Below are positions 1,763 to 11,610 of a stretch of 13,985 nucleotides of DNA, in pieces. A program made the position numbers and the translations under genes. The stretch is from an uncultured bacterium (GTDB taxonomy: Bacteria > Abyssobacteria > SURF-5): positions 1 to 13,985 of the forward strand of contig CAZEBC010000102.1 in the NCBI GenBank assembly GCA_964510165.1, written 5' to 3'. Each line of letters starts with the position of its first letter. Position 1 is the first letter of the stretch. A model generated the notes under the pieces. It was not told the DNA's origin. It ran no database searches and saw only the letters and a list, made by a program, of their open reading frames with translations.

Positions 1763-2905
1763 CTACTTCGCCGCTCCTGCGGAACTTCTCTCCCATTTGA
1801 ATGCGAGCAGACCCGCCGCAAAAAACACCGCCAGATAGGCTGTCAGAACCAGAAGGGACGGCCATATCTCGAGCGGGCGCCCGTTCACGTTCATTGCACG
1901 GCGAAGGCCTTCGGCCAGATGAGTCAACGGCAATGCCCATATGAGGGGATGGATTTTCGGGGGCATGATCTCGAGGGGCAGAAATATTCCGCAGAGCATC
2001 AGCATCGGGATGGAAACCACGTTAGCGATGGTTGAAGCCACCTCGGGCGTCTTTGCGAAGCCGGCAATCGTGAAGGCCATCGCGGCTGCAGTCAGGTTCC
2101 CGAGCAGAACGAGGAGCGCAACCGCCGCGATGGGAAGCGCCAGACTTGTCCTAAAAAACGTACGCGCGATGACCAGGATGAGTATGGTTTGCGAGGCTGC
2201 GATAAAGAGACGGAACAGCACGTGACTCAGCACGAAAGCGGAACGGCTGAGAGGGGTTACCCATAAGCGTCGCATTATTCCCTGTTCCCTGAGCCTTACG
2301 ATGGTCGGGGCCAGTGAGAATATGCAACTGGGCATCACCGCCATTGCTATGACACCGGGGATCAGGAAGTCGATGAAGTCAAAGAACTGGTCAACGGTCA
2401 CGATGCGGGTCCGAATGAAAGCGACGGGGAGAACCGACCGTGTTTCGCGAGTGACACAGCCTTCAACCGTTTCCCTGAGCAGATTGAATGCCATCTCAGT
2501 CAACGGAAGGGCGCGTGAGTCAGTGAGCACCTCCATCTTTGCTCCCGATGTGCGCAACGCTTGTTCAAAGCCGCGAGGAAAAATGACGACTATCCGCTGG
2601 TGGGTGCTCCGAGCTTGCTGCCTGGCCTCTTCTTCGGTCAACTCGGTAACAGTAAACTCTGGGGCGTTCTTGAGCGCCTCAACAAATTCTCTGGATGTCC
2701 CGGTCTGGTCGTGATCAACCACGCCGACCGGGAAATTGACATCTTCAGGCCTGAGGCTTCCAATTCCTGCCATGTCTTTGAGAACAGGCCCAAGTAAAAG
2801 CAGCAAGAAAACCGGGAGGAAGAAGACCCAGAATATTTCTTGACGGACGCGGAAAAACATCCTCGCATTCGTGAGGAGCAGATGGCCAATTCCTCTCACT
2901 GCCAA
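1763..2905 (-). CDS. ABC-2 type transporter permease (YbhR/YbhS-like, large extracytoplasmic loop)
   Basis: N-terminal TM (IFWVFFLPVFLLLLLG), loop with VGVVDHDQT, FLIPGVIAM, REQGIMRRLWVTP, GIFLPLEIMP..LPLTH and several C-terminal TM segments. TTG start follows AAGGA; GTG at 2899 is an alternative. Confidence 0.9.
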   Translation of the reverse strand: MAVRGIGHLLLTNARMFFRVRQEIFWVFFLPVFLLLLLGPVLKDMAGIGSLRPEDVNFPVGVVDHDQTGTSREFVEALKNAPEFTVTELTEEEARQQARSTHQRIVVIFPRGFEQALRTSGAKMEVLTDSRALPLTEMAFNLLRETVEGCVTRETRSVLPVAFIRTRIVTVDQFFDFIDFLIPGVIAMAVMPSCIFSLAPTIVRLREQGIMRRLWVTPLSRSAFVLSHVLFRLFIAASQTILILVIARTFFRTSLALPIAAVALLVLLGNLTAAAMAFTIAGFAKTPEVASTIANVVSIPMLMLCGIFLPLEIMPPKIHPLIWALPLTHLAEGLRRAMNVNGRPLEIWPSLLVLTAYLAVFFAAGLLAFKWERSSAGAAK

Positions 2906-2948: not shown

Positions 2949-3095
2949 TCATGATATCACACATCGAGCATGCGGGTGAACCGGAGAGGGGTCTCGAACG
3001 GGCCGACAAGCGCAACACGGACTCCAGCCGCAGTTCAGGCACAGCTTACATCCTTCGATCATGGCGATTAAGCCGCCGCAGCATGGGCATCTCAT
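2949..3095 (-). CDS. Small Cys-rich zinc-ribbon protein (48 aa), not in the ORF track
   Basis: Manual translation: MRCPCCGGLIAMIEGCKLCLNCGWSPCCACRPVRDPSPVHPHARCVIS*. AAGGAG RBS (3109-3104) lies 8 nt before the ATG, which is 38 nt after the lexA stop. CPxCG...EGCxxCxxCGWSxC pattern. Confidence 0.75.
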   Translation of the reverse strand: MRCPCCGGLIAMIEGCKLCLNCGWSPCCACRPVRDPSPVHPHARCVIS

Positions 3096-3133
3096 TTACC
3101 TTGCTCCTTGCGGTTGAGCCGTCTAGGCGAAGC

Positions 3134-3751
3134 TCAATATCGTCTCAAGAGTCCGACGAGTATCCCCTGGATTCGGATATCTCTGTCCTTGACGATCAGG
3201 GGAGCATGCTCTTCATTGGCGGGTTGGAGACGAATTGAATCCTTCTCACGATAGAATTTCTTAAGGGTAGCGTTTTCGCCATCTAGCAATGCGACGACCG
3301 TTTGTCCGTTTTCCGCGGTGTGTCCTTCGACCACAATCGCGTAGTCGCCGTCCAGGATATGGTCGTCAATCATCGAGTTTCCCTTGACCCTCAAAACGAA
3401 CATGCGCTTGCCGCGATGCGGAACGAGGTCGCCAGGGACCGCGATCGATTCCTTTTGCTCGATGGCCTCAATCGGCTCGCCTGCCGCTATGGTTCCGACG
3501 AGGGGAAGCAAGACGCTTGTTCCCACCTCGTCGAATCCCCCTCCAACCACCTCAATTGAGCGTCTTCGGTTCGGTTCATGTTTAATGAAGCCCTTTTCTC
3601 TGAGAAGGGCAAGGTGTTTGTGGACGGTCGCTACCGAAGAAAGACCCAATGCCGAACCGATCTCTTCGAGGCTGGGCGCATATCCATTCTCAGCGAGGTA
3701 GTTTCTCAGGAAATCCAACACTTCCTTTTGCCGCTTCGTCAGGCTTGCCAT
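3134..3751 (-). CDS. lexA: SOS repressor LexA (205 aa)
   Basis: LTKRQKEVLDFL..GYAPSLEEIG..SSVATVHKHL..KGFI winged-helix DNA-binding domain, IAAGEP Ala-Gly autocleavage site, catalytic Ser in VKGNSM and Lys in ATLKK. Start at ATG 3751 with GGGAG RBS. Confidence 0.97.
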   Translation of the reverse strand: MASLTKRQKEVLDFLRNYLAENGYAPSLEEIGSALGLSSVATVHKHLALLREKGFIKHEPNRRRSIEVVGGGFDEVGTSVLLPLVGTIAAGEPIEAIEQKESIAVPGDLVPHRGKRMFVLRVKGNSMIDDHILDGDYAIVVEGHTAENGQTVVALLDGENATLKKFYREKDSIRLQPANEEHAPLIVKDRDIRIQGILVGLLRRY

Positions 3752-3763
3752 TCGCGTCTCCCG

Positions 3764-3793
3764 TTGACTTGATGATTCGTTAGTTGGTACTAT
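3764..3793 (+). promoter_or_regulatory. Candidate sigma70 promoter of the nuclease-helicase gene
   Basis: TTGACT (3764-3769), 18-nt spacer, TGg-TACTAT (-10 at 3788-3793, extended type). Confidence 0.6.
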
Positions 3794-3820
3794 TATAGGC
3801 GAAACTAAGGCGAAAGTCAA
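3792..3820 (-). promoter_or_regulatory. sigma70 promoter of lexA
   Basis: Minus strand reads TTGACT (3820-3815), exactly 17 nt, TATAAT (3797-3792), which is nearly the consensus. Confidence 0.85.
3797..3815. promoter_or_regulatory. Direct-repeat operator, candidate LexA (SOS) box
   Basis: AGGCGAAA at 3797-3804 and 3808-3815 (11-bp period). The minus strand reads TTTCGCCT-tag-TTTCGCCT, i.e. TTTC-N7-TTTC, filling the lexA promoter spacer. Confidence 0.7.
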
Positions 3821-3835
3821 GCAAAACTTTATCGA

Positions 3836-6223
3836 ATGTCCGTTCGCATTGATATCGAGAGCAAGACCCTGTGGGTAGGTGTCGGCGACCTGGTCCAAGG
3901 TCTCAAGGGAAGCCTTGGCCGTTCCGGCCTCCTCGAATTTCGCGGCAAGTGGGGGCGGGAGGCTCACCGCTCGAAAGCCGCCGAGGCGGTCACGGATGGC
4001 CATCGTCTGAACGAGGTCCACGTCTCGCACTCAATCCGGGTGAATGATTATACGGCGGTCATCTCAGGGAGAATCGATTCAATACTGCTCCACAATGACT
4101 CAACAATCGTGGAGGAGGTCAAGACCGGTGCTCTCTCCGGTGTGCAGATCGAAAGTTGTAATGAGGACAGTTTTCGCACCTTTCGGGACCAACTTCGGGC
4201 TTATCTCTATTTGTTGGAATTCGGTTCCGAGTACAAGAACCTCAGTGGACGCCTGATGCTGGTGAGTCTTCTCGACGGAACCGTCGTACGTGTTCCTGTC
4301 AGCTATGAGGCGGAGCCCACCTTCCTGTTTCTACGCTCAAAGATAATAGGACTTCTGCGTCGGCATGAGCGGCGCGCCGTGAAGAAGAAGAGCCGCAAGC
4401 ATCTGGCCGGCCCGATAAAATTCCCCCATGAGAAGCCGCGCACATATCAGGCCGAGGTGAGCGATGCGGTGACGGAGGCCCTGCAATCGCGTAATCATCT
4501 GTTGTTGAGCGCGCCGACCGGAATTGGGAAGACAGCGGCGGCTCTGCACGCCGCGTTGAGGTTTGCGCTCGCCAAAGGAAAACGAATATTCTGGGCTACT
4601 GCCAAGACCTCTCAACAAGCCATCGTGTCCGAAACGCTTGCCCCGATGCTCTCCAGTTTGGCCGCATTTTCAAGCATGATCGTGGCCGCCAAAGAGAAGT
4701 TGTGCCCGAACGAGATGTATTGCTGTGATGAAGATTACTGCACATACGCGCGAGGTTTGTACGAGCGACTCCACGGATCGGGCGTGGTGGAATCTTTGCT
4801 CGGAAGCCGGTTGATTGGTTTCGGCCAGATTCTCGATGCGGCCCGCAAAGAGAGTCTGTGCCCATTTGAGCTCTCGCTGGAGCTGACGCTCGAGGTGGAC
4901 ATGGTCATTGGCGACTACAATTACGTTTTCGACCCGGCGAGTTACCTGCGTCGTTTGTTTTCCGGAAAACATCGGGATTGGATATTGGTCATAGATGAGG
5001 CTCATAATCTATATCCGCGCGCCAGGGAATACTTCTCGCCCTGCCTTTCGCTCAGGAGCGTGAAAGAGGCTGAGGAGTATGCATTGAGCGCGGGCTGGTG
5101 TCCTCCGGAGGCATTGAGGCTCATCGGCGAAGCAAGGAAATACCTGGTTTCACGGGGTCGAAGACTGCGGAAGAACGGTGGCGAGACGCAAGCAGTCATC
5201 GAAAGCGATAAAGGTTTCTCTCCTCAATTGTCGGACCGAATCGATGCCGTGCTCTCGGGATTTCTTCTCGAAAGAGTCCGGACCGACATCGAGACGGAAG
5301 AGCCGGCGGGCGCCTTCCTGACGGAACTGAGGAGGTTCTGCCGTGGGCTGGAACTGGACGGCGACTTTGCACATATATTCGATACTCGTGACGGAGGCGC
5401 CTTGAAACTGGTTTGCCTTGACCCCTCGCCACAGCTTACCGAGAGGATCGCGGGATTCCACAGTGTGATAGCCATGTCCGCAACGCTGAAACCACAAAGC
5501 TTCTTTGCCAATGTGCTCGGGTTTCCCCGGGACCAGACATTGATGTCAGAATTCGGCTCTCCGTTTCCGAGGGAAAACCGAAAGGTGATCGTCATTCCGG
5601 GAGTCGCGACAACTTTTCAGGCGCGGCGGCACACAGCGCCCGAGGTTGCGAGAACGATAAGGGATTTGGCTTCCCTCCGGTGCGGCAATTATGCGGTCTT
5701 TTTCCCCAGTTTTGCTTACATGGACCTCGTTCGGCCGCATCTGACAGGGTTTCCGGGAAACATCGTCGTTCAGGAGAGGTCCATGCGACAGTGGGAAATC
5801 AAGAAGTTGATGGCAACACTGAAGGAGGGCCGGACCAATCTGTTTCTGGCGATACAAGGAGGCATGTTTGGTGAGGGAGTTGATTACCCTGGCGCTTCCC
5901 TCATCGGGGCTTTCATCGTCGGTGTTGGCCTGCCGGAGCCGACACTGGAAAACGAACTGCTGAGGGAACACTTTGCCGAAAAATACGAGGCCGGTTTCGA
6001 ATATGCATATTTGTATCCCGGGATGACGCGGGTCATCCAGTCGGCTGGCCGGGTCATCCGCTCCGAGAGTGATTCCGGGCTTATTGTTTTAATAGGGAAA
6101 CAGTTTGCTTTGCCCGAATACGCTGCGCTGATACCGAGGGAATGGTATGACTATTCCATCGAGGAATTGGCGGCCGCGGACCCCTATGCCGCAGCGCGGG
6201 AGTTCTGGGAAGGAATCCCTTAA
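3836..6223 (+). CDS. DinG/Rad3/XPD family Fe-S DNA helicase with N-terminal PD-(D/E)XK nuclease domain
   Basis: N-terminal GRIDSIL..VEEVKTG..QLRAY nuclease motifs, Q motif PRTYQ, Walker A APTGIGKT, Fe-S cysteines LCPNEMYCCDEDYC..LCPFE, GDYNYVFDP, DEAH box, MSATL, FFPSF, EGVDYPG and motif VI QSAGRVIRS. Confidence 0.92.
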   Translation: MSVRIDIESKTLWVGVGDLVQGLKGSLGRSGLLEFRGKWGREAHRSKAAEAVTDGHRLNEVHVSHSIRVNDYTAVISGRIDSILLHNDSTIVEEVKTGALSGVQIESCNEDSFRTFRDQLRAYLYLLEFGSEYKNLSGRLMLVSLLDGTVVRVPVSYEAEPTFLFLRSKIIGLLRRHERRAVKKKSRKHLAGPIKFPHEKPRTYQAEVSDAVTEALQSRNHLLLSAPTGIGKTAAALHAALRFALAKGKRIFWATAKTSQQAIVSETLAPMLSSLAAFSSMIVAAKEKLCPNEMYCCDEDYCTYARGLYERLHGSGVVESLLGSRLIGFGQILDAARKESLCPFELSLELTLEVDMVIGDYNYVFDPASYLRRLFSGKHRDWILVIDEAHNLYPRAREYFSPCLSLRSVKEAEEYALSAGWCPPEALRLIGEARKYLVSRGRRLRKNGGETQAVIESDKGFSPQLSDRIDAVLSGFLLERVRTDIETEEPAGAFLTELRRFCRGLELDGDFAHIFDTRDGGALKLVCLDPSPQLTERIAGFHSVIAMSATLKPQSFFANVLGFPRDQTLMSEFGSPFPRENRKVIVIPGVATTFQARRHTAPEVARTIRDLASLRCGNYAVFFPSFAYMDLVRPHLTGFPGNIVVQERSMRQWEIKKLMATLKEGRTNLFLAIQGGMFGEGVDYPGASLIGAFIVGVGLPEPTLENELLREHFAEKYEAGFEYAYLYPGMTRVIQSAGRVIRSESDSGLIVLIGKQFALPEYAALIPREWYDYSIEELAAADPYAAAREFWEGIP

Positions 6224-6240: not shown

Positions 6241-7683
6241 TCATTCTGACAGGAGTAGGTTGGCGAGTCCTTCTTTGTCTTCGTGGGTGTAAAGGATCAC
6301 AATGTCGGTGCGGCCATCCGCGTTCAGGTCGAACGTTGACATAAGGCCGTAGGCCGGAACCTCGTATTCCCGGTTAGGGTCCTTTGGCAGGATCGTCTCG
6401 CGGTTGGCGAGGAAGAAGGAGAGGCGGTTCTCGTTGGTGCCAACTGCCAGATCATCCAAACCGTCGCCGTTGAAATCGCCCGCTCCCCTGGCCGGTTCTG
6501 CGCCCGACTCGCTGACCTGGATGTAGATGGGTCGTTTCAGCGATGGCTCCTTTTCGTACCGGCCCTGTTCAGTCAGCTTCCGTAGTTCGGCATCGACTCG
6601 GATGCGGTTGGTCAGGAAGTAGTTGATGAAAAAGCCGATCCCAACATTTATGTCCTGCAGCAGCATTTCCATCTTGCCATCGCCGGTTGCATCGAAGAAC
6701 ACAGGCAGAATCAGGCTCGCGTCGCCCGAATACACATGGTCGGGCTCGCTGGTGTACTCGAAGCCTTTCCGCCCGAAATAGATTTGCACTTCGCTCTGCA
6801 AGTTTTTTTTCTGAGACAGGAAGACCACCACCGCGTCGGGGAGGCCGTCAACATTAAGGTCGTCGAAGCTCGTTGCCGCTATGAAGTCCTTTGTGAATTT
6901 CTCTACCAGCGATGTCTTAACATGGCGAGTTGGCATTGGCAAGCCGTTAGTTAAGAAGAAATTCATTTCCTCGAGGTCGAAGACACCCACGTCGGTTCGG
7001 CCGTCCCCATCGAAGTCCAAAAGCTCGATTTTCGGCAGCCGATACGTGATATAGTACTGCCCGCTCTCGCCTCGCAGGGAACCTCTCAGAGGGAATTCAA
7101 GGAATTCTGCCTCTTGGAGCTCGAGACCCTCACTGATTGCGAATACTTGCATGCCGTTGATCGTTGGAAGCAGCACCTCAATCCTTCCGTCGGAGCCGAT
7201 ATCGTCAACCCAATGCGCGCGGGCGGTGCTTCTGCTCATGGAGGGCAGGATGGTGGGGTAGTCTCTAAGCCTATGCGTTTCGACCGAATCGTTTTCAGTA
7301 AGGTCCAATAATGCGACACCGCCCGAGTCGAACAAGAAGATTTCTTCGGCCCTGTCGGAATCGACGTCTTTCAGGTCGACGGCGCTCACGGCCTCATTGA
7401 TTGCGAATTCAAGGTCCGGCTCATTATTGAAGCCCGTGTCTTTCTGAAGATAGACCGCGCAGAATTTTCTGTACGATTCTCGCGAAGGTTTGTGGAAGAG
7501 TAGCAGGTCGGCCTTTCCGTTGCCGTCAATGTCTCCGGAATCAGCCAGAAGGACGATGCCCGGCCGGCGGAACTGGATAATTTGAAATCCGAACGAATCC
7601 TGTGCAAAGATGTCTCTCTGCCCGATGAAGGAGAGAAAGAGAAGCATGGCGAGATGAAGAAGTGCGCCCGGCGATGGTTTCAT
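6241..7683 (-). CDS. Exported FG-GAP/VCBS repeat (beta-propeller-like) protein
   Basis: Hydrophobic N-terminal signal-like segment, then about eight Dx[DN]xDG-type motifs: DIDGNGKAD, DVDSDRAEE, DIGSDGRIE, DFDGDGRTD, DLNVDGLPD, DATGDGKME, DFNGDGLDD, DLNADGRTD. Start overlaps the recN stop (ATGA). Confidence 0.85.
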   Translation of the reverse strand: MKPSPGALLHLAMLLFLSFIGQRDIFAQDSFGFQIIQFRRPGIVLLADSGDIDGNGKADLLLFHKPSRESYRKFCAVYLQKDTGFNNEPDLEFAINEAVSAVDLKDVDSDRAEEIFLFDSGGVALLDLTENDSVETHRLRDYPTILPSMSRSTARAHWVDDIGSDGRIEVLLPTINGMQVFAISEGLELQEAEFLEFPLRGSLRGESGQYYITYRLPKIELLDFDGDGRTDVGVFDLEEMNFFLTNGLPMPTRHVKTSLVEKFTKDFIAATSFDDLNVDGLPDAVVVFLSQKKNLQSEVQIYFGRKGFEYTSEPDHVYSGDASLILPVFFDATGDGKMEMLLQDINVGIGFFINYFLTNRIRVDAELRKLTEQGRYEKEPSLKRPIYIQVSESGAEPARGAGDFNGDGLDDLAVGTNENRLSFFLANRETILPKDPNREYEVPAYGLMSTFDLNADGRTDIVILYTHEDKEGLANLLLSE

Positions 7684-9404
7684 CGATTTCTTCGTGAAAG
7701 CGCCAGCAATTCCTGGGCGTGTTTGAGGGAAATCTGGCCTGTTGCCTCGCCGCCCATCATACGCGCGATCTCGACCACCCGGTCCCGTCCGGTCGGAAAG
7801 ATGACCTCGGTGCGCGTGCGTCCCAGCTTGGCTTGCTTGTTGACGACAACGTGGTTGTCGGCTCTGGCGGCAATCTGGGGCAAATGGGTGACGCAGATCA
7901 CCTGACGGGACGAGGAGACCATGAACAGTTTTTCGGCTATGGCCATGCCCATGCGCGCTCCGATGCCGGCATCAATCTCGTCGAAGATTATCACGGGGAC
8001 CCTGTCGGCCTCAGCTAGTATGGTCCGGATGGCAAGCATGATGCGGGATATCTCCCCACCCGAAGCGATAGCTTTGAGAGGTCTTGGCGGCTCGCCGGGA
8101 TTAGCGGAGAACAGGAATTCCACCTTGTCCACACCCGTGCTCCAGAGCCTCCAGTTCTTGTCCTTGTATCTGACAATTCCATCGGGAGCTTGTTCTTGTT
8201 GTATCGAGACAACAAAGCGTGAATTGCTCATCCCGAGGTCGCGCAGGTGGAGCTGAATCTGCTTCTCAAGCCTGTTGGCGGCCTCGTTCCTTTTTTGCGA
8301 AAGAATGGTCGCCAGCTTTCCAATTTCCTCGCGTCGGCGCTCGATGTCGTGCTGGAGCTTTGCCCGTTCGCTCGATGAGCCGACAAGTTGATTGTATTCC
8401 GCGCGCAGCCGCTCCCTCAGATCGATCAGGGCCTGGAGAGAATCACAGTTGAAACGGCGCTTCAGATTTGATATCGCGGCCAACCTGCTTTCGAGCGCGT
8501 CGAGTTCGGCAGGGTCAAACTCAAGGCGGGATATATAGGATTGCAGCGCCTGGGCGAGCTCCGAGAGCCTGAACCGCAGCTCCTCATAGCTGGACACCGT
8601 GTCCGTGAGGCTGCGGTCAATGGCAGATATTTCCTTGAGGGCCTGCATGATGGAATTCCAGACACTGATAAGCGGTTCCGGATGCATCTCACCGCCTGAA
8701 AGCATGTCGTAAGCCTGGCCGGCCAGACGATGTATGTGCTCTGAGTTGGCAATGACGTCGCGTCGCGACTTCAGTTCCGCGTCCTCGCCTTCCCGAAGTT
8801 GCGCCTTGTCGAGTAACTCAAGTTCCTCCTCCAACTCCGCCAGGCGCTGATTCCGAGTGGTTTCATGCGTGATCAATCGTTCGAGAACTGAAATGCAATG
8901 TTTCAATTCGTTGTATCCCTGCCGGATGAATGCGGCCTCGGCCCCCAATCCCCCGAACTCATCGAGCAGGCTGAGGTGCTTGGCCGCGCTCATGAGCGAT
9001 TGGTGTTCGTGCTGTCCGTGCATGTCCACGAGCAAGTCGCCGACCCTCGAAAGCAGATTAAGTGTGACAACGGAAGTGTTCAGAAAGCACCTGCTCTTGC
9101 CGTCGGCGGCAATCACGCGCCGCAGCAGAAGCTCGTCCTGCGAGCCGTCAAGTTCCAGCGACTCAAGCAGGTCCTTGACGGGAAGACACGCGGAGATGTC
9201 GAATACGGCCTCGATGTCAGCGGCTTGCTCGCCGCTCCGTATAGAGGTGGCCGCTGCTCGCTCGCCCAGCAGCAGACTCATGGCGTCGACAATAATGGAC
9301 TTGCCCGCGCCGGTCTCGCCCGTGAGCACATTGAGGCCCGGCTTCCAAGGAATTATGAGGTCATCGACCAGGGCGAAATTACGGATGTGCAGAGTCTCCA
9401 GCAT
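7680..9404 (-). CDS. recN: DNA repair protein RecN
   Basis: MLETLHIRNFAL start, Walker A TGETGAGKS, DMHGQHEHQ, long coiled coil, NPGEP, signature ASGGEISR, Walker B FDEIDAG, VTHLPQIA, EIARMMGG. ATG 9404 sits 2 nt after the nadK stop. Confidence 0.97.
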   Translation of the reverse strand: MLETLHIRNFALVDDLIIPWKPGLNVLTGETGAGKSIIVDAMSLLLGERAAATSIRSGEQAADIEAVFDISACLPVKDLLESLELDGSQDELLLRRVIAADGKSRCFLNTSVVTLNLLSRVGDLLVDMHGQHEHQSLMSAAKHLSLLDEFGGLGAEAAFIRQGYNELKHCISVLERLITHETTRNQRLAELEEELELLDKAQLREGEDAELKSRRDVIANSEHIHRLAGQAYDMLSGGEMHPEPLISVWNSIMQALKEISAIDRSLTDTVSSYEELRFRLSELAQALQSYISRLEFDPAELDALESRLAAISNLKRRFNCDSLQALIDLRERLRAEYNQLVGSSSERAKLQHDIERRREEIGKLATILSQKRNEAANRLEKQIQLHLRDLGMSNSRFVVSIQQEQAPDGIVRYKDKNWRLWSTGVDKVEFLFSANPGEPPRPLKAIASGGEISRIMLAIRTILAEADRVPVIIFDEIDAGIGARMGMAIAEKLFMVSSSRQVICVTHLPQIAARADNHVVVNKQAKLGRTRTEVIFPTGRDRVVEIARMMGGEATGQISLKHAQELLALSRRNR

Positions 9405-9406
9405 GA

Positions 9407-10312
9407 CTATCTGCGCCCCCAATTGAGCTTGGTCCGAAGCACTTCAAAATAGCTCTTGGTCGCCGAGGCGGCAAGTCTCATGGAATATGGAGACTTTCGC
9501 ACGATGGCCTGGTCCCATTGGTGAAGCTGAACCGCTATCTGTCCGTCGATCATAAGGCCCGGTGAGGCCTGGCGCGATACCACGATCACGCGCAGGGTCT
9601 GGTTGGAGCTGAGGACGAGAGGCCGGTTGGTAAGCATGTGAGGACATATTGGCGTTACGACAATGGCCTCTGCCTCGGGGTAAATGATTGGCCCGCCGGC
9701 CGAGAGCGAGTGCGCCGTCGAGCCGGTCGGCGTGGCTATTATCAATCCATCGCACGCATATGTCGCAAGGAACTCATCGTCTACGTACGTTTCCAGCATG
9801 AGCATCCGTTCGAGGGAATCGCGCTGAATCACCACGTCATTTAGCGCAACCTGCTCCTGATGCGTGGTTCCGTCGGAGTGGATGACCGAACAGGCCAACA
9901 TCATACGCTGCTCTAATCTGTGACGCCCTGCCAACACTTCTTCGAGCGTGGAAAAAATTTCTTCCTCCGTCACGCCGGTCAGAAAACCGAGCCCGCCGAC
10001 CTTGATACCCATGACGGGCGTGGAGGCTCCGTTCATCTGCTTGGCGACGCTTAGCATGGTGCCGTCACCGCCGAAGACGACAATGAAATCGACCGTGCCG
10101 GGCATCTCTTTGGCGGGGATCAGTTGCACCGTGGGCCCTTCGGGCGACTTCACCGACGGATCCATAATATGGGAAACCACCGAGTCAAGCGCCACCTCTA
10201 TTCCTTTATTCTCAAGCCAGGCAACCACCTGCTTAATCAGGGTAAACGCATTGGTCTTGGTAGGATTCACAATCAGTCCCACGCGCTTTATTTTGGGTTT
10301 TTCCTTGTTCAC
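9407..10312 (-). CDS. nadK: NAD(+) kinase
   Basis: GGDGT motif, GGLGFL, LNDVV, DGLIIATPTGSTAHSLSAGGP, TPICPH, KLNWG. GTG start. Confidence 0.96.
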   Translation of the reverse strand: MNKEKPKIKRVGLIVNPTKTNAFTLIKQVVAWLENKGIEVALDSVVSHIMDPSVKSPEGPTVQLIPAKEMPGTVDFIVVFGGDGTMLSVAKQMNGASTPVMGIKVGGLGFLTGVTEEEIFSTLEEVLAGRHRLEQRMMLACSVIHSDGTTHQEQVALNDVVIQRDSLERMLMLETYVDDEFLATYACDGLIIATPTGSTAHSLSAGGPIIYPEAEAIVVTPICPHMLTNRPLVLSSNQTLRVIVVSRQASPGLMIDGQIAVQLHQWDQAIVRKSPYSMRLAASATKSYFEVLRTKLNWGRR

Positions 10313-10318
10313 CGTGCA

Positions 10319-10843
10319 TCAAATCCAAAGGTCGATTAAGGTTGTGATCAGGGACTTGGCGACTGTCATTCCGCGATACGCATGGATGGGCTGTTCGAGC
10401 CTTATCTGTGCGGCGGCATGTAGGGCGCGCTCCTTTCGTTTGCGCGCTTCGTCTTCAATAAGGCGCTGTTTGCTCTTCCCTCGTTTTTTCTCGAGATAAC
10501 TCTTGTAGAGCATCAACTCTCCTTTGTCAAACCAGAATCCTTGGCAGGTTGTGCAGTAGTCAATATGCAATCCCGGCGGGAGGCCGCCTCCGGAATGTTC
10601 GGTCAAGAAGACTTCGCATCGGGGACAATACAGAGCCGCCTCGCGCCGCTGGATGGATATCTCGTCAAGCGCAACTTCGGTTTCGGCTTCCAATGCGGAG
10701 TCACGGCTGACAGCGAAAACGACGTCTTGATCGAGCCAAAGCCCGCGACACGTGGGACATTGGTAAAGCAGCAGCTTCGCGCCATAATGTCCCCAAGCTT
10801 CACGTTCCTGCATCAGCTCTCTGCATTTCGGGCATCTCACCAT
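10319..10843 (-). CDS. Protein with two zf-TFIIB-like zinc ribbons and a charged C-terminal helix
   Basis: CPKC..CPTCRGLWLD and CPRC..CTTCQGFWFDKGEL. Start placed at ATG 10843 (MVRCPKC), preceded by GGAGGGG. Confidence 0.85.
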   Translation of the reverse strand: MVRCPKCRELMQEREAWGHYGAKLLLYQCPTCRGLWLDQDVVFAVSRDSALEAETEVALDEISIQRREAALYCPRCEVFLTEHSGGGLPPGLHIDYCTTCQGFWFDKGELMLYKSYLEKKRGKSKQRLIEDEARKRKERALHAAAQIRLEQPIHAYRGMTVAKSLITTLIDLWI

Positions 10844-10857
10844 GCTTCGCCCCTCCG

Positions 10858-11610
10858 TCAAGAATTATGCCGGGTCAGATACATGAAAAACTCCTTGTTG
10901 CCGGCCGGGCCCAGAATGGGAGAATCAATGACGCCCTTGGAACTGAAGCGGAGGCTTTCCGCAAGAGCGGCGATTCTGTCAATTACCTCAATATGAACAG
11001 CCGGGTCGCGCACAACCCCGCCTTTTCCAACCTTTTCGCGGCCGGCCTCAAACTGCGGCTTGATAAGCGCGATTATTTCGCCGTCATGCGTCAGGACGTT
11101 TGCGAGAGCGGGCAAAATCAAAGATAGAGATATGAAGGAGACATCAACGGTGGCGAACTGGGGACGCTCATCGAATAGAGCGGGCGTAAGCATCCGCGCG
11201 TTGACGCGCTCCATCACGACCACTCTCGGGTCGGTCCGGAGTTGCCAGGCGAGCTGACCGTAGCCAACGTCAACGGCATATACTTTTCGGGCGCCATGGC
11301 GAAGCAGACATTCAGTGAACCCCCCGGTCGAAGCCCCGACATCAATCGCAATCTTGTCTTGGACGACGGGATTGAAATAGCGCACAGCGCACTCGAGCTT
11401 TTCGCCACCGCGGCTGACGAACTCGGCGCCCTCGACCAACTCGACGTCGCTTCCCGGCTTCACGACTTCACCCGCCTTGTCGGCCGGATGTGAGTCAACA
11501 CGAACCCGGCCTGCCAGTATCAGCGCCCTCGCTTTCGCCCTGGTGGGGGCCAAGTTCAAGTCAACCATCAACTTATCAAGTCTTTCCCTCTTGTCGGAAG
11601 TGGCTCTCAT
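10858..11610 (-). CDS. tlyA: TlyA family rRNA 2'-O-methyltransferase (S4 + FtsJ-like domain)
   Basis: RLDKLMV..TRAKARALILAG S4 domain, VSRGGEKL, DVGASTGGFT, VDVGYGQL, DVSFISL, LIKPQFE, GNKEF. Confidence 0.96.
   Translation of the reverse strand: MRATSDKRERLDKLMVDLNLAPTRAKARALILAGRVRVDSHPADKAGEVVKPGSDVELVEGAEFVSRGGEKLECAVRYFNPVVQDKIAIDVGASTGGFTECLLRHGARKVYAVDVGYGQLAWQLRTDPRVVVMERVNARMLTPALFDERPQFATVDVSFISLSLILPALANVLTHDGEIIALIKPQFEAGREKVGKGGVVRDPAVHIEVIDRIAALAESLRFSSKGVIDSPILGPAGNKEFFMYLTRHNS

Follow-up and report, generated by a model that had tools for sequence, protein, structure and literature searches.

The window analysed here is the whole 13,985-nucleotide (nt) stretch of contig CAZEBC010000102.1 (GenBank assembly GCA_964510165.1) of an uncultured bacterium of the SURF-5 lineage of the Abyssobacteria, and the subject of this report is a short open reading frame (ORF) that follows a lexA gene on its reverse strand. 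To judge from its conservation, the ORF at positions 2949 to 3095 is a genuine protein-coding gene that is unannotated in these genomes. By sequence comparison, the 27-residue core of its product is free-standing and homologous to the six-Cys zinc finger with which the class II ribonucleotide reductase (RNR) NrdJ terminates. We are highly confident that this is a real zinc-ribbon microprotein gene related to the NrdJ finger, and that it forms a conserved unit with the gene of a self-cleaving LexA paralogue, here called LexA-Z, which has its own repeat-filled promoter. The gene itself is solid, while its function is still a matter of conjecture.

The product of the ORF, MRCPCCGGLIAMIEGCKLCLNCGWSPCCACRPVRDPSPVHPHARCVIS, contains 10 Cys and 2 His residues. 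The reading frame of 48 amino acids (aa), the AAGGAG motif 8 nt ahead of the start codon and the 38-nt gap behind the lexA stop codon had been described in the original prediction and were all re-derived from the sequence, including the lack of any terminator-like site in the gap (Table 1). The ORF is unchanged in contigs of three public DNA runs (X1, X2 and X3) of two studies, one of them possibly the source sample; contigs of X2 and X3 differ from the window at five positions inside lexA-Z, whereas their microprotein ORF shows no difference. A collection of 15 billion proteins does not contain the exact protein of the window or those of four orthologues, so that the gene callers must have passed over them, and a single-sequence word search with the microprotein returned no match.

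The distribution of the gene was followed in the 11 genomes of the phylum present in the collection, the window genome being G000. A lexA of the LexA-Z type is intact in six of them (G000, G001, G004, G005, G009 and G010), and an ORF with the same six-Cys array lies behind it in all six. Additionally, the pair was found at three of 14 confirmed metagenome loci (L051, L052 and L056), which brings the number of intact loci to nine, spanning two families of the phylum. Neither a LexA-Z-type lexA nor the microprotein was found in G002, G007 and G008, and no lexA match was obtained in G003, which is 77 % complete. The locus of G006 is decayed (G006:C67, L008/L040, 885-1276): lexA-Z is reduced to its last 55 codons, which come after a uvrB-like 3′ end, and the microprotein frame is interrupted by an in-frame TAA at codon 17. 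The G006 genome is 97 % complete, and no further lexA turned up in it. The position of the microprotein gene behind the gene of a cleavable LexA paralogue is thus fixed, and the two are lost or decay jointly. The flanking genes vary between genomes, the microprotein being the sole constant neighbour of lexA-Z. Since the flanks differ and the divergent helicase gene of the window is confined to a few loci, lexA-Z and the microprotein gene are regarded as a constant unit. The earlier placement of the gene behind lexA holds in that a lexA does precede it, with the amendment that the genome has two lexA paralogues, of which this is one.

The translation signals are conserved as well. A purine-rich GGAG-like stretch precedes the microprotein start in every locus, the spacers between lexA-Z and the microprotein range from 35 to 166 nt, and eight of the nine are devoid of a hairpin followed by a T-run, the exception being L052 with a hairpin and T4. 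In the core (codons 1-28) of eight sequences of the window family, the pooled proportions of synonymous (pS) and nonsynonymous (pN) differences over 28 pairs were 0.87 and 0.13, a ratio of 0.15; the pairwise ratios lie between 0 and 0.31, and L005 and L006 differ with a pS of 0.78 at a pN of 0. With synonymous sites saturated and nonsynonymous change low, the core evidently evolves under protein-level selection. The original prediction had named three things that should persist behind lexA orthologues if the gene is real, namely the ORF, its Cys spacing and its ribosome-binding site; all three are kept, and the dN/dS-type check that had been proposed points the same way. That the ORF might be no gene at all, arising by chance in the 3′ untranslated region of lexA, could be suspected from the missing entries in the 15-billion-protein collection. 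It is hardly credible, however, given a core conserved across two families at a pN/pS of 0.15, the identical core residues of L005 and L006 despite their synonymous divergence, the conserved start codon and Shine-Dalgarno sequence, and the related metagenome proteins P0001-P0005, which were called as genes; the conservation pattern effectively refutes the chance-ORF reading. Three of these related clusters (P0001, P0004 and P0005) carry the name 'hypothetical protein'.

The original prediction had also divided the product into a likely functional core and a possibly unconserved tail. The conservation of residues 1-27 bears out the first part; the second has to be modified, because the tail is partly kept: several sequences of alignment A2 loosely follow the pattern C-[FC]-x-A-[HR]-P-[FV] at residues 28-36. 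Two further forms of the gene were observed. In the sister-family genome G010 (G010:C4, L076 1454-1687, reverse strand) the six-Cys module is C-terminal behind a Pro/Ala-rich leader and the protein stops 2 residues past the last Cys; this version was missed by the protein search. A second microprotein paralogue (MKCPCCGGTLVSAGGCSLCLNCGWSRC...) with a strong Shine-Dalgarno sequence is present at G005:C95:21536-21675 (L023 4037-4176), with no lexA nearby; it follows a gene that by eye resembles an alpha/beta-hydrolase, and the contig stops inside it.

The relationship to NrdJ rests on the six Cys residues and their surroundings. C3, C6, C16, C19, C22 and C27 occur without exception in alignments A1, A2 and A5, and the invariant positions of A2 are M1, C3, P4, C6, G7, G8, G15, C16, L18, C19, C22, G23, W24, S25 and C27. 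The Cys spacing, CX2C-X9-CX2CX2C-X4-C, is that of the NrdJ tail of the host. The tails of NrdJ from 17 loci all follow the pattern CxxC-X9/10/12-CxxCxxC-X4-C, with the last Cys 0-1 residue from the stop, two having an X10 or X12 loop and the rest X9; the earlier statement that this pattern marks the extreme C-terminus of many NrdJ enzymes is hereby confirmed. When the profile of the microproteins (A2) was compared by hhalign with that of 16 NrdJ tails, the probability was 98.6 % with an E-value of 9.8e-16 over 28 columns. All ten family members matched the last 26 positions of NCBIfam NF006417 (NrdJ), the best at an E-value of 3.3e-4, although all are far under its cut-off of 961 bits, which is set for the whole enzyme. 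The best structural match in BFVD was a phage NrdJ (probability 0.98, root-mean-square deviation 0.7 Å over 27 columns), at a non-significant E-value of 0.083. The AF2 model predicts two short hairpins forming a zinc ribbon, with pLDDT values of 88 for residues 1-20, 77 for residues 21-30 and below 50 for residues 33-43. The resemblance to the C-terminal Zn module of NrdJ, proposed earlier from the letters alone, is upheld by these comparisons. By alignment with the assignments of Loderer and coworkers (2017), C3, C6, C19 and C22 are the putative Zn ligands, and C16 and C27 the putative redox pair.

Other databases were less specific. The microprotein matched no Pfam family at E ≤ 1, the sequence search against PDB gave nothing better than an E-value of 0.005, Foldseek against PDB returned generic zinc ribbons only (E ≥ 0.3), and the ESM Atlas held no match at 0.9 or above. 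Weak matches to NF041910 (HVO_0416 family zinc finger) were obtained for 8 of the 10 members (best E 0.0072), the window protein scoring 11.9 bits against a cut-off of 80, which places it outside that family; zinc fingers of TFS4/RpoM-2 were also among the weak matches. Moreover, the module makes up residues 1-27 of a 48-aa ORF and is not located at the C-terminus of an RNR or of a TSCPD/IscU-like protein.

A profile search of 1.84 billion representatives yielded 111 proteins at E ≤ 1e-3, four of them at E ≤ 1e-10. Ten larger matches picked from the 111 comprise four with an RNR barrel and three with a TSCPD domain, one of them having both, so that six of the ten are RNR-derived; the others are one multi-zinc-ribbon protein and three without a family. 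The occurrence of the pattern on TSCPD-domain proteins, as stated earlier, was thus seen again. Many of the 35 small matches inspected stand alone, with lengths of 31-115 aa and the module at either end. P0014, P0017, P0047 and P0092 form a subfamily of stand-alone modules with a conserved C-terminal ...[LIM][FY]YF[NGD]N[VL]N ending, and other examples adjoin HerA-like and RadC genes. Stand-alone six-Cys microproteins (MRCPCCGGRLASGGGAC...) were likewise observed on two viral contigs of about 15.6 kb (L074 and L075, 3001-3100; same contigs as L057 and L062), both rated 100 % complete, one with an integrase and the other with a small terminase-like gene; neither contig carries an RNR gene.

This distribution bears on the explanation that the microprotein is a generic Zn/thiol module, such as a redox or metal sensor or a ribbon binding nucleic acid or RNA polymerase, whose likeness to NrdJ reflects the ancestry of a mobile mini-domain and not its target. 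The many stand-alone forms among the 111 matches, their occurrence next to HerA-like and RadC genes or on small contigs of temperate viruses that carry no RNR, and the weak matches to TFS4/RpoM-2 and HVO_0416 zinc fingers all speak for it. We nevertheless consider it unlikely, because the recognisable fusion partners are RNR or TSCPD (6 of 10 larger matches) and never another enzyme family, and NrdJ is the most consistent match, being found by all ten members.

The gene preceding the microprotein encodes a LexA. LexA-Z matches PF01726 (6.7e-22), PF00717 (1.5e-29) and TIGR00498 (7.6e-60, 202 bits against a cut-off of 110.95), and the AAG cleavage site, the Ser of the G[DN]SM motif and the Lys of the S24 protease are invariant in alignment A4. 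Its true start lies at 3751 (MASLTKRQ...), shared with all relatives, whereas the 298-aa version starting from a GTG at 4030 in the ORF list was rejected as an artefact, all relatives starting at the equivalent of 3751. The spacer of its promoter is occupied by the direct repeat TTTCGCC-N4-TTTCGCC, which is perfect at six of the nine loci with upstream sequence, deviates by two mismatches each in L052 and G010, and is missing in L005. The 4.17-Mb genome contains one perfect copy, at the lexA-Z promoter. The sole copy with one mismatch (G000:C204:4561-4579) lies upstream of a Top6B/Top6A pair at a distance of about 120 nt, the pair being a bacterial topoisomerase VI (G000:C204 1781-4444; L025, L081) with subunits of 521 aa and 360 aa, respectively; one perfect and one imperfect copy are too few to define a broader LexA-Z regulon, and this idea was abandoned. 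The repeat is a putative LexA-Z operator. If so, the near-uniqueness of its perfect form would imply a very small LexA-Z regulon with the microprotein as its constant cargo or main output. No separate promoter was identified for the microprotein. In contigs of the other samples X1 and X5, four clustered substitutions were observed at 3783-3788 just downstream of the -10 box of lexA-Z, together with an extra ATG at the helicase start (window 3835).

The link to lexA invites two explanations that do not involve RNR. Genes for division inhibitors of the SulA, YneA, SosA and SidA type often adjoin lexA, and the microprotein could be their counterpart, an SOS checkpoint effector that blocks division or replication initiation independently of RNR. 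It forms a conserved unit with lexA as its only constant neighbour, and repressor and effector decayed together in G006, as would be expected of a gene that is harmful when unrepressed. This we regard as distinctly unlikely, since the microprotein has no similarity to those families (no Pfam family at E ≤ 1) and, by inspection of the sequences, no hydrophobic segment long enough for a membrane anchor, and since the retention of all six NrdJ-type Cys residues, including the non-ligand pair, would be left unexplained. Alternatively, in the manner of gp7 of phage GIL01, which acts with LexA, and of DinI, which acts with RecA, the microprotein could be a feedback partner, adjusting cleavage of the repressor or its binding to DNA through contact with LexA-Z or RecA. 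The strict co-occurrence and co-loss with LexA-Z (six of six phylum genomes plus three metagenome loci, and absence wherever LexA-Z is absent) would fit such a role, which is improbable all the same, as it explains neither the retained redox pair nor the specific likeness to the NrdJ tail, and as the second G005 paralogue is far from any lexA. When LexA-Z (A4) and the microprotein (A2) were modelled as a complex, the score was 0.00, which speaks neither for nor against an interaction.

The homology suggests NrdJ as the target, and no other RNR locus was found in the 97 %-complete host genome. The enzyme has 774 aa and ends in ...CPDCGAQIEREGGCIVCRACGYSKCN; it was checked, as had been proposed, for a C-terminal ribbon of its own, and its six-Cys tail is kept. 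According to Loderer and coworkers (2017; PMC5704485), all six Cys residues of the NrdJd of S. nassauensis are required for turnover driven by tris(2-carboxyethyl)phosphine (TCEP), four being assigned to Zn and two to the redox pair. The cysteine-rich domain (CRD) of one NrdJ subunit is reported there to be able to reduce the active site in a different subunit, a separately expressed CRD failed to reconstitute a CRD-less enzyme, and the native reductant of CRD-type NrdJ is described as still unidentified. Burnim and coworkers (2022; PMC9669993) predicted this finger as well, the Cys pair occupying the end opposite to the Zn site. These two sources place the six-Cys finger in about 70 % of class II RNRs and treat its exact role as unsettled (PMC5704485, PMC9669993).

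Against this background we tentatively propose, at less than even probability, that the microprotein would be a diffusible mimic of the redox tail of NrdJ, induced by damage and acting in trans. In this model, damage to the DNA would activate RecA and thereby trigger self-cleavage of LexA-Z, which would derepress the lexA-Z/microprotein transcript. The microprotein would fold on one Zn (C3, C6, C19 and C22) and expose a redox-active pair (C16/C27) as the NrdJ tail does, and this free copy of the tail would act on the only RNR of the genome. It might throttle NrdJ by competing for the active site, or for the reductant, with the tail tethered to the enzyme, leading to less synthesis of deoxynucleoside triphosphates (dNTPs), or it might boost NrdJ by ferrying extra electrons in trans, leading to more. 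We lean slightly to throttling, and hence to a replication brake, because both genes were lost or decayed together and because NrdJ already has its own tail. The full circuit, in which a dedicated LexA paralogue would control an RNR-tail mimic and damage would directly retune, probably throttle, the sole RNR at the step of active-site re-reduction, is on the doubtful side.

Several points weigh against this proposal. Co-transcription of lexA-Z and the microprotein gene is presumed from their spacing, while the spacers of L005 and L052 measure 138-166 nt, L052 has a terminator-like hairpin, and L005 lacks the candidate operator repeat. Short Cys-rich profiles may inflate profile-profile scores, the single-sequence database matches are all below curated cut-offs, and the structural matches in PDB are the generic zinc ribbons mentioned above. 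Here 20-30 residues trail the module, as against 0-1 in NrdJ (17 of 17), and might impede entry into the active site. The failure of a separate CRD to reconstitute the enzyme, as reported by Loderer et al., argues against a simple booster. Moreover, the stand-alone modules in unrelated contexts, including the two small viral contigs without an RNR, indicate that the module need not act on RNR, and tailed NrdJ is present in carrier and non-carrier genomes alike, so that the microprotein does not co-vary with its proposed target. The nrdJ promoters of six relatives (L068-L073) have TTGACTTTCG in common with the lexA-Z promoter, with A for the last G in L071; this 10-mer has 8 copies in G000, which is the chance frequency genome-wide, and counts as a hint at most. 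In the host, the region upstream of nrdJ (L065 1-395) includes a stretch of N and has one TTTTCGCCTAT.

The microprotein was compared with the known systems closest to it. With the terminal zinc finger of the NrdJ CRD it has in common the six Cys residues and their spacing in the host tail, the GG / EGC / CG[WY]S context and the predicted ribbon fold. It differs in being unattached to an RNR or an IscU-like/TSCPD domain and in lying behind a lexA paralogue, in having the module at the N-terminus followed by a 20-30-aa tail (in G010 at the C-terminus after the Pro/Ala-rich leader), and in a hydrophobic loop (I-V-A-x-L) with L18, N21 and W24 nearly fixed. A precedent for a separately encoded RNR tail is NrdJb of the split NrdJa+b of Pseudomonas aeruginosa (cited in PMC5704485 and PMC9669993), which is a whole CRD of 150-220 aa that complements the tail-less NrdJa within the nrd locus. 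In contrast, the microprotein corresponds to the last ~27 residues only, the host NrdJ is complete, and the gene is located with lexA. The six-Cys module, and its occurrence within the separate CRD protein NrdJb, is already known; among the papers listed by our literature search, which did not extend to the supplements of Burnim et al. and Loderer et al., where such ORFs might appear, no description of the 27-residue stand-alone form or of a link to lexA was found.

A functional analogue without sequence relationship is Sml1, which according to PMC6382339 (citing Zhang et al. 2007) is a small protein tied to the DNA-damage response that hinders regeneration of the catalytic Cys of the large subunit by competing with the Cys tail at the C-terminus of that subunit. 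Damage leads to the removal of Sml1, while the microprotein would be induced and its action on NrdJ is hypothetical. For the gene arrangement, the lexA2-imuA-imuB-imuC operon of Pseudomonas putida (PMC5261740) offers a genome with two lexA genes in which one paralogue is co-transcribed with, and controls, a small operon. In the present genome it is the other paralogue that holds such a position, followed by a RecA/RadA-like gene with sub-threshold matches, and what accompanies LexA-Z as cargo is not polymerases but a zinc microprotein of 48 aa.

Table 1. Features in and around the lexA-Z/microprotein unit (positions in the window)
Feature	Position	Strand	Remarks
Microprotein gene	2949..3095	(-)	48 codons plus TGA stop, ATG start; orthologues behind lexA in 8 other intact loci
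Six-Cys zinc-ribbon core, codons 1-27	3015..3095	(-)	C3, C6, C16, C19, C22, C27; invariant columns, NrdJ-tail homology
Variable Cys/Pro-rich tail, codons 28-48	2952..3014	(-)	Alignment A2; predicted disorder
Shine-Dalgarno sequence AAGGAG	3104..3109	(-)	8 nt upstream of the ATG at 3095
38-nt spacer from lexA stop (3134-3136) to microprotein ATG	3096..3133	(-)	Without terminator-like site
lexA paralogue LexA-Z, 205 aa	3134..3751	(-)	Pfam, NCBIfam, alignment A4
lexA-Z promoter TTGACT, 17-nt spacer, TATAAT	3792..3820	(-)	11/12 consensus matches
Direct repeat TTTCGCC-N4-TTTCGCC, candidate LexA-Z operator	3798..3815	(-)	Occupies the promoter spacer
Divergent XPD/DinG-type helicase, 795 aa, N-terminal PD-(D/E)XK nuclease domain	3836..6223	(+)	Pfam, NCBIfam
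ABC-2 permease, downstream of microprotein	1763-2905	(-)	Pfam, NCBIfam

The second lexA of the host (G000:C75:1478-2080, L041; relatives L042, L043 and L037-L039) is 44 % identical to lexA-Z, from which it differs in the recognition helix. Its promoter carries the palindromic box TATACAAATGTATA; near-matches to this box elsewhere are beside unrelated genes and were dismissed as looking like chance. The overlapping gene behind it, which may be ImuA-like, gave weak, sub-threshold RadA/Rad51-like matches and is followed by a possible DNA polymerase. No lexA other than this type was found in G002, G007 and G008. A palindrome in the recA leader (GGCGAAC-N5-GTTCGCC), considered as an operator sharing the TTCGCC half-site, was rejected, as it belongs to a family of repeats resembling repetitive extragenic palindromic (REP) elements. 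This family, GTAGGGGCGAAC-N5-GTTCGCCC, accounts for 9 of 21 CGAAC-N5-GTTCG sites (3 in the reversed-genome control) and its members have long flanks in common; the copies are located at G000:C301:1171 in the recA leader (L082), between a promoter-like site and the start, and at eight other sites.

The helicase gene is separated from lexA-Z by a common 84-nt control region. It is divergent from lexA-Z in the window, L007, L051 and L052 only and was not found at E ≤ 1e-30 in G001, G004, G009, G002 and G007, and this patchy presence rules it out as part of the constant unit. A Cheo-box-like sequence, CGAATGTCCGTTCG, noticed by eye over the helicase start was discarded, having by eye no counterpart at the equivalent place in L007. 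Further along the window, a housekeeping block on the reverse strand (7680-11610) comprises genes for a RecN-like SMC ATPase (580 aa), an NAD kinase, a 180-aa Zn_ribbon_TFIIB protein and a TlyA-like FtsJ/S4 methyltransferase, and a 450-aa ORF at 11759-13111 matches no Pfam family.

The gene is an example of a conserved microprotein that was missed, for these genomes, by the gene calls behind the 15-billion-protein collection, and it comes with a second LexA circuit, in a candidate phylum about which little is known, whose candidate operator is unusual in being a direct repeat. Should this repeat indeed be the operator, the microprotein would be the main output of a small dedicated circuit and not one member of a broad SOS regulon. 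If the proposed action on NrdJ is true, it would add a new layer to the regulation of RNR, a bacterial counterpart of Sml1-type control made from a piece of the enzyme itself, and free modules on small temperate phage-like elements could serve to manipulate the dNTP supply of their hosts. The free-standing copy would then be a ready-made probe of the chemistry of the six-Cys finger and might offer a handle on the physiological reductant of CRD-type NrdJ.

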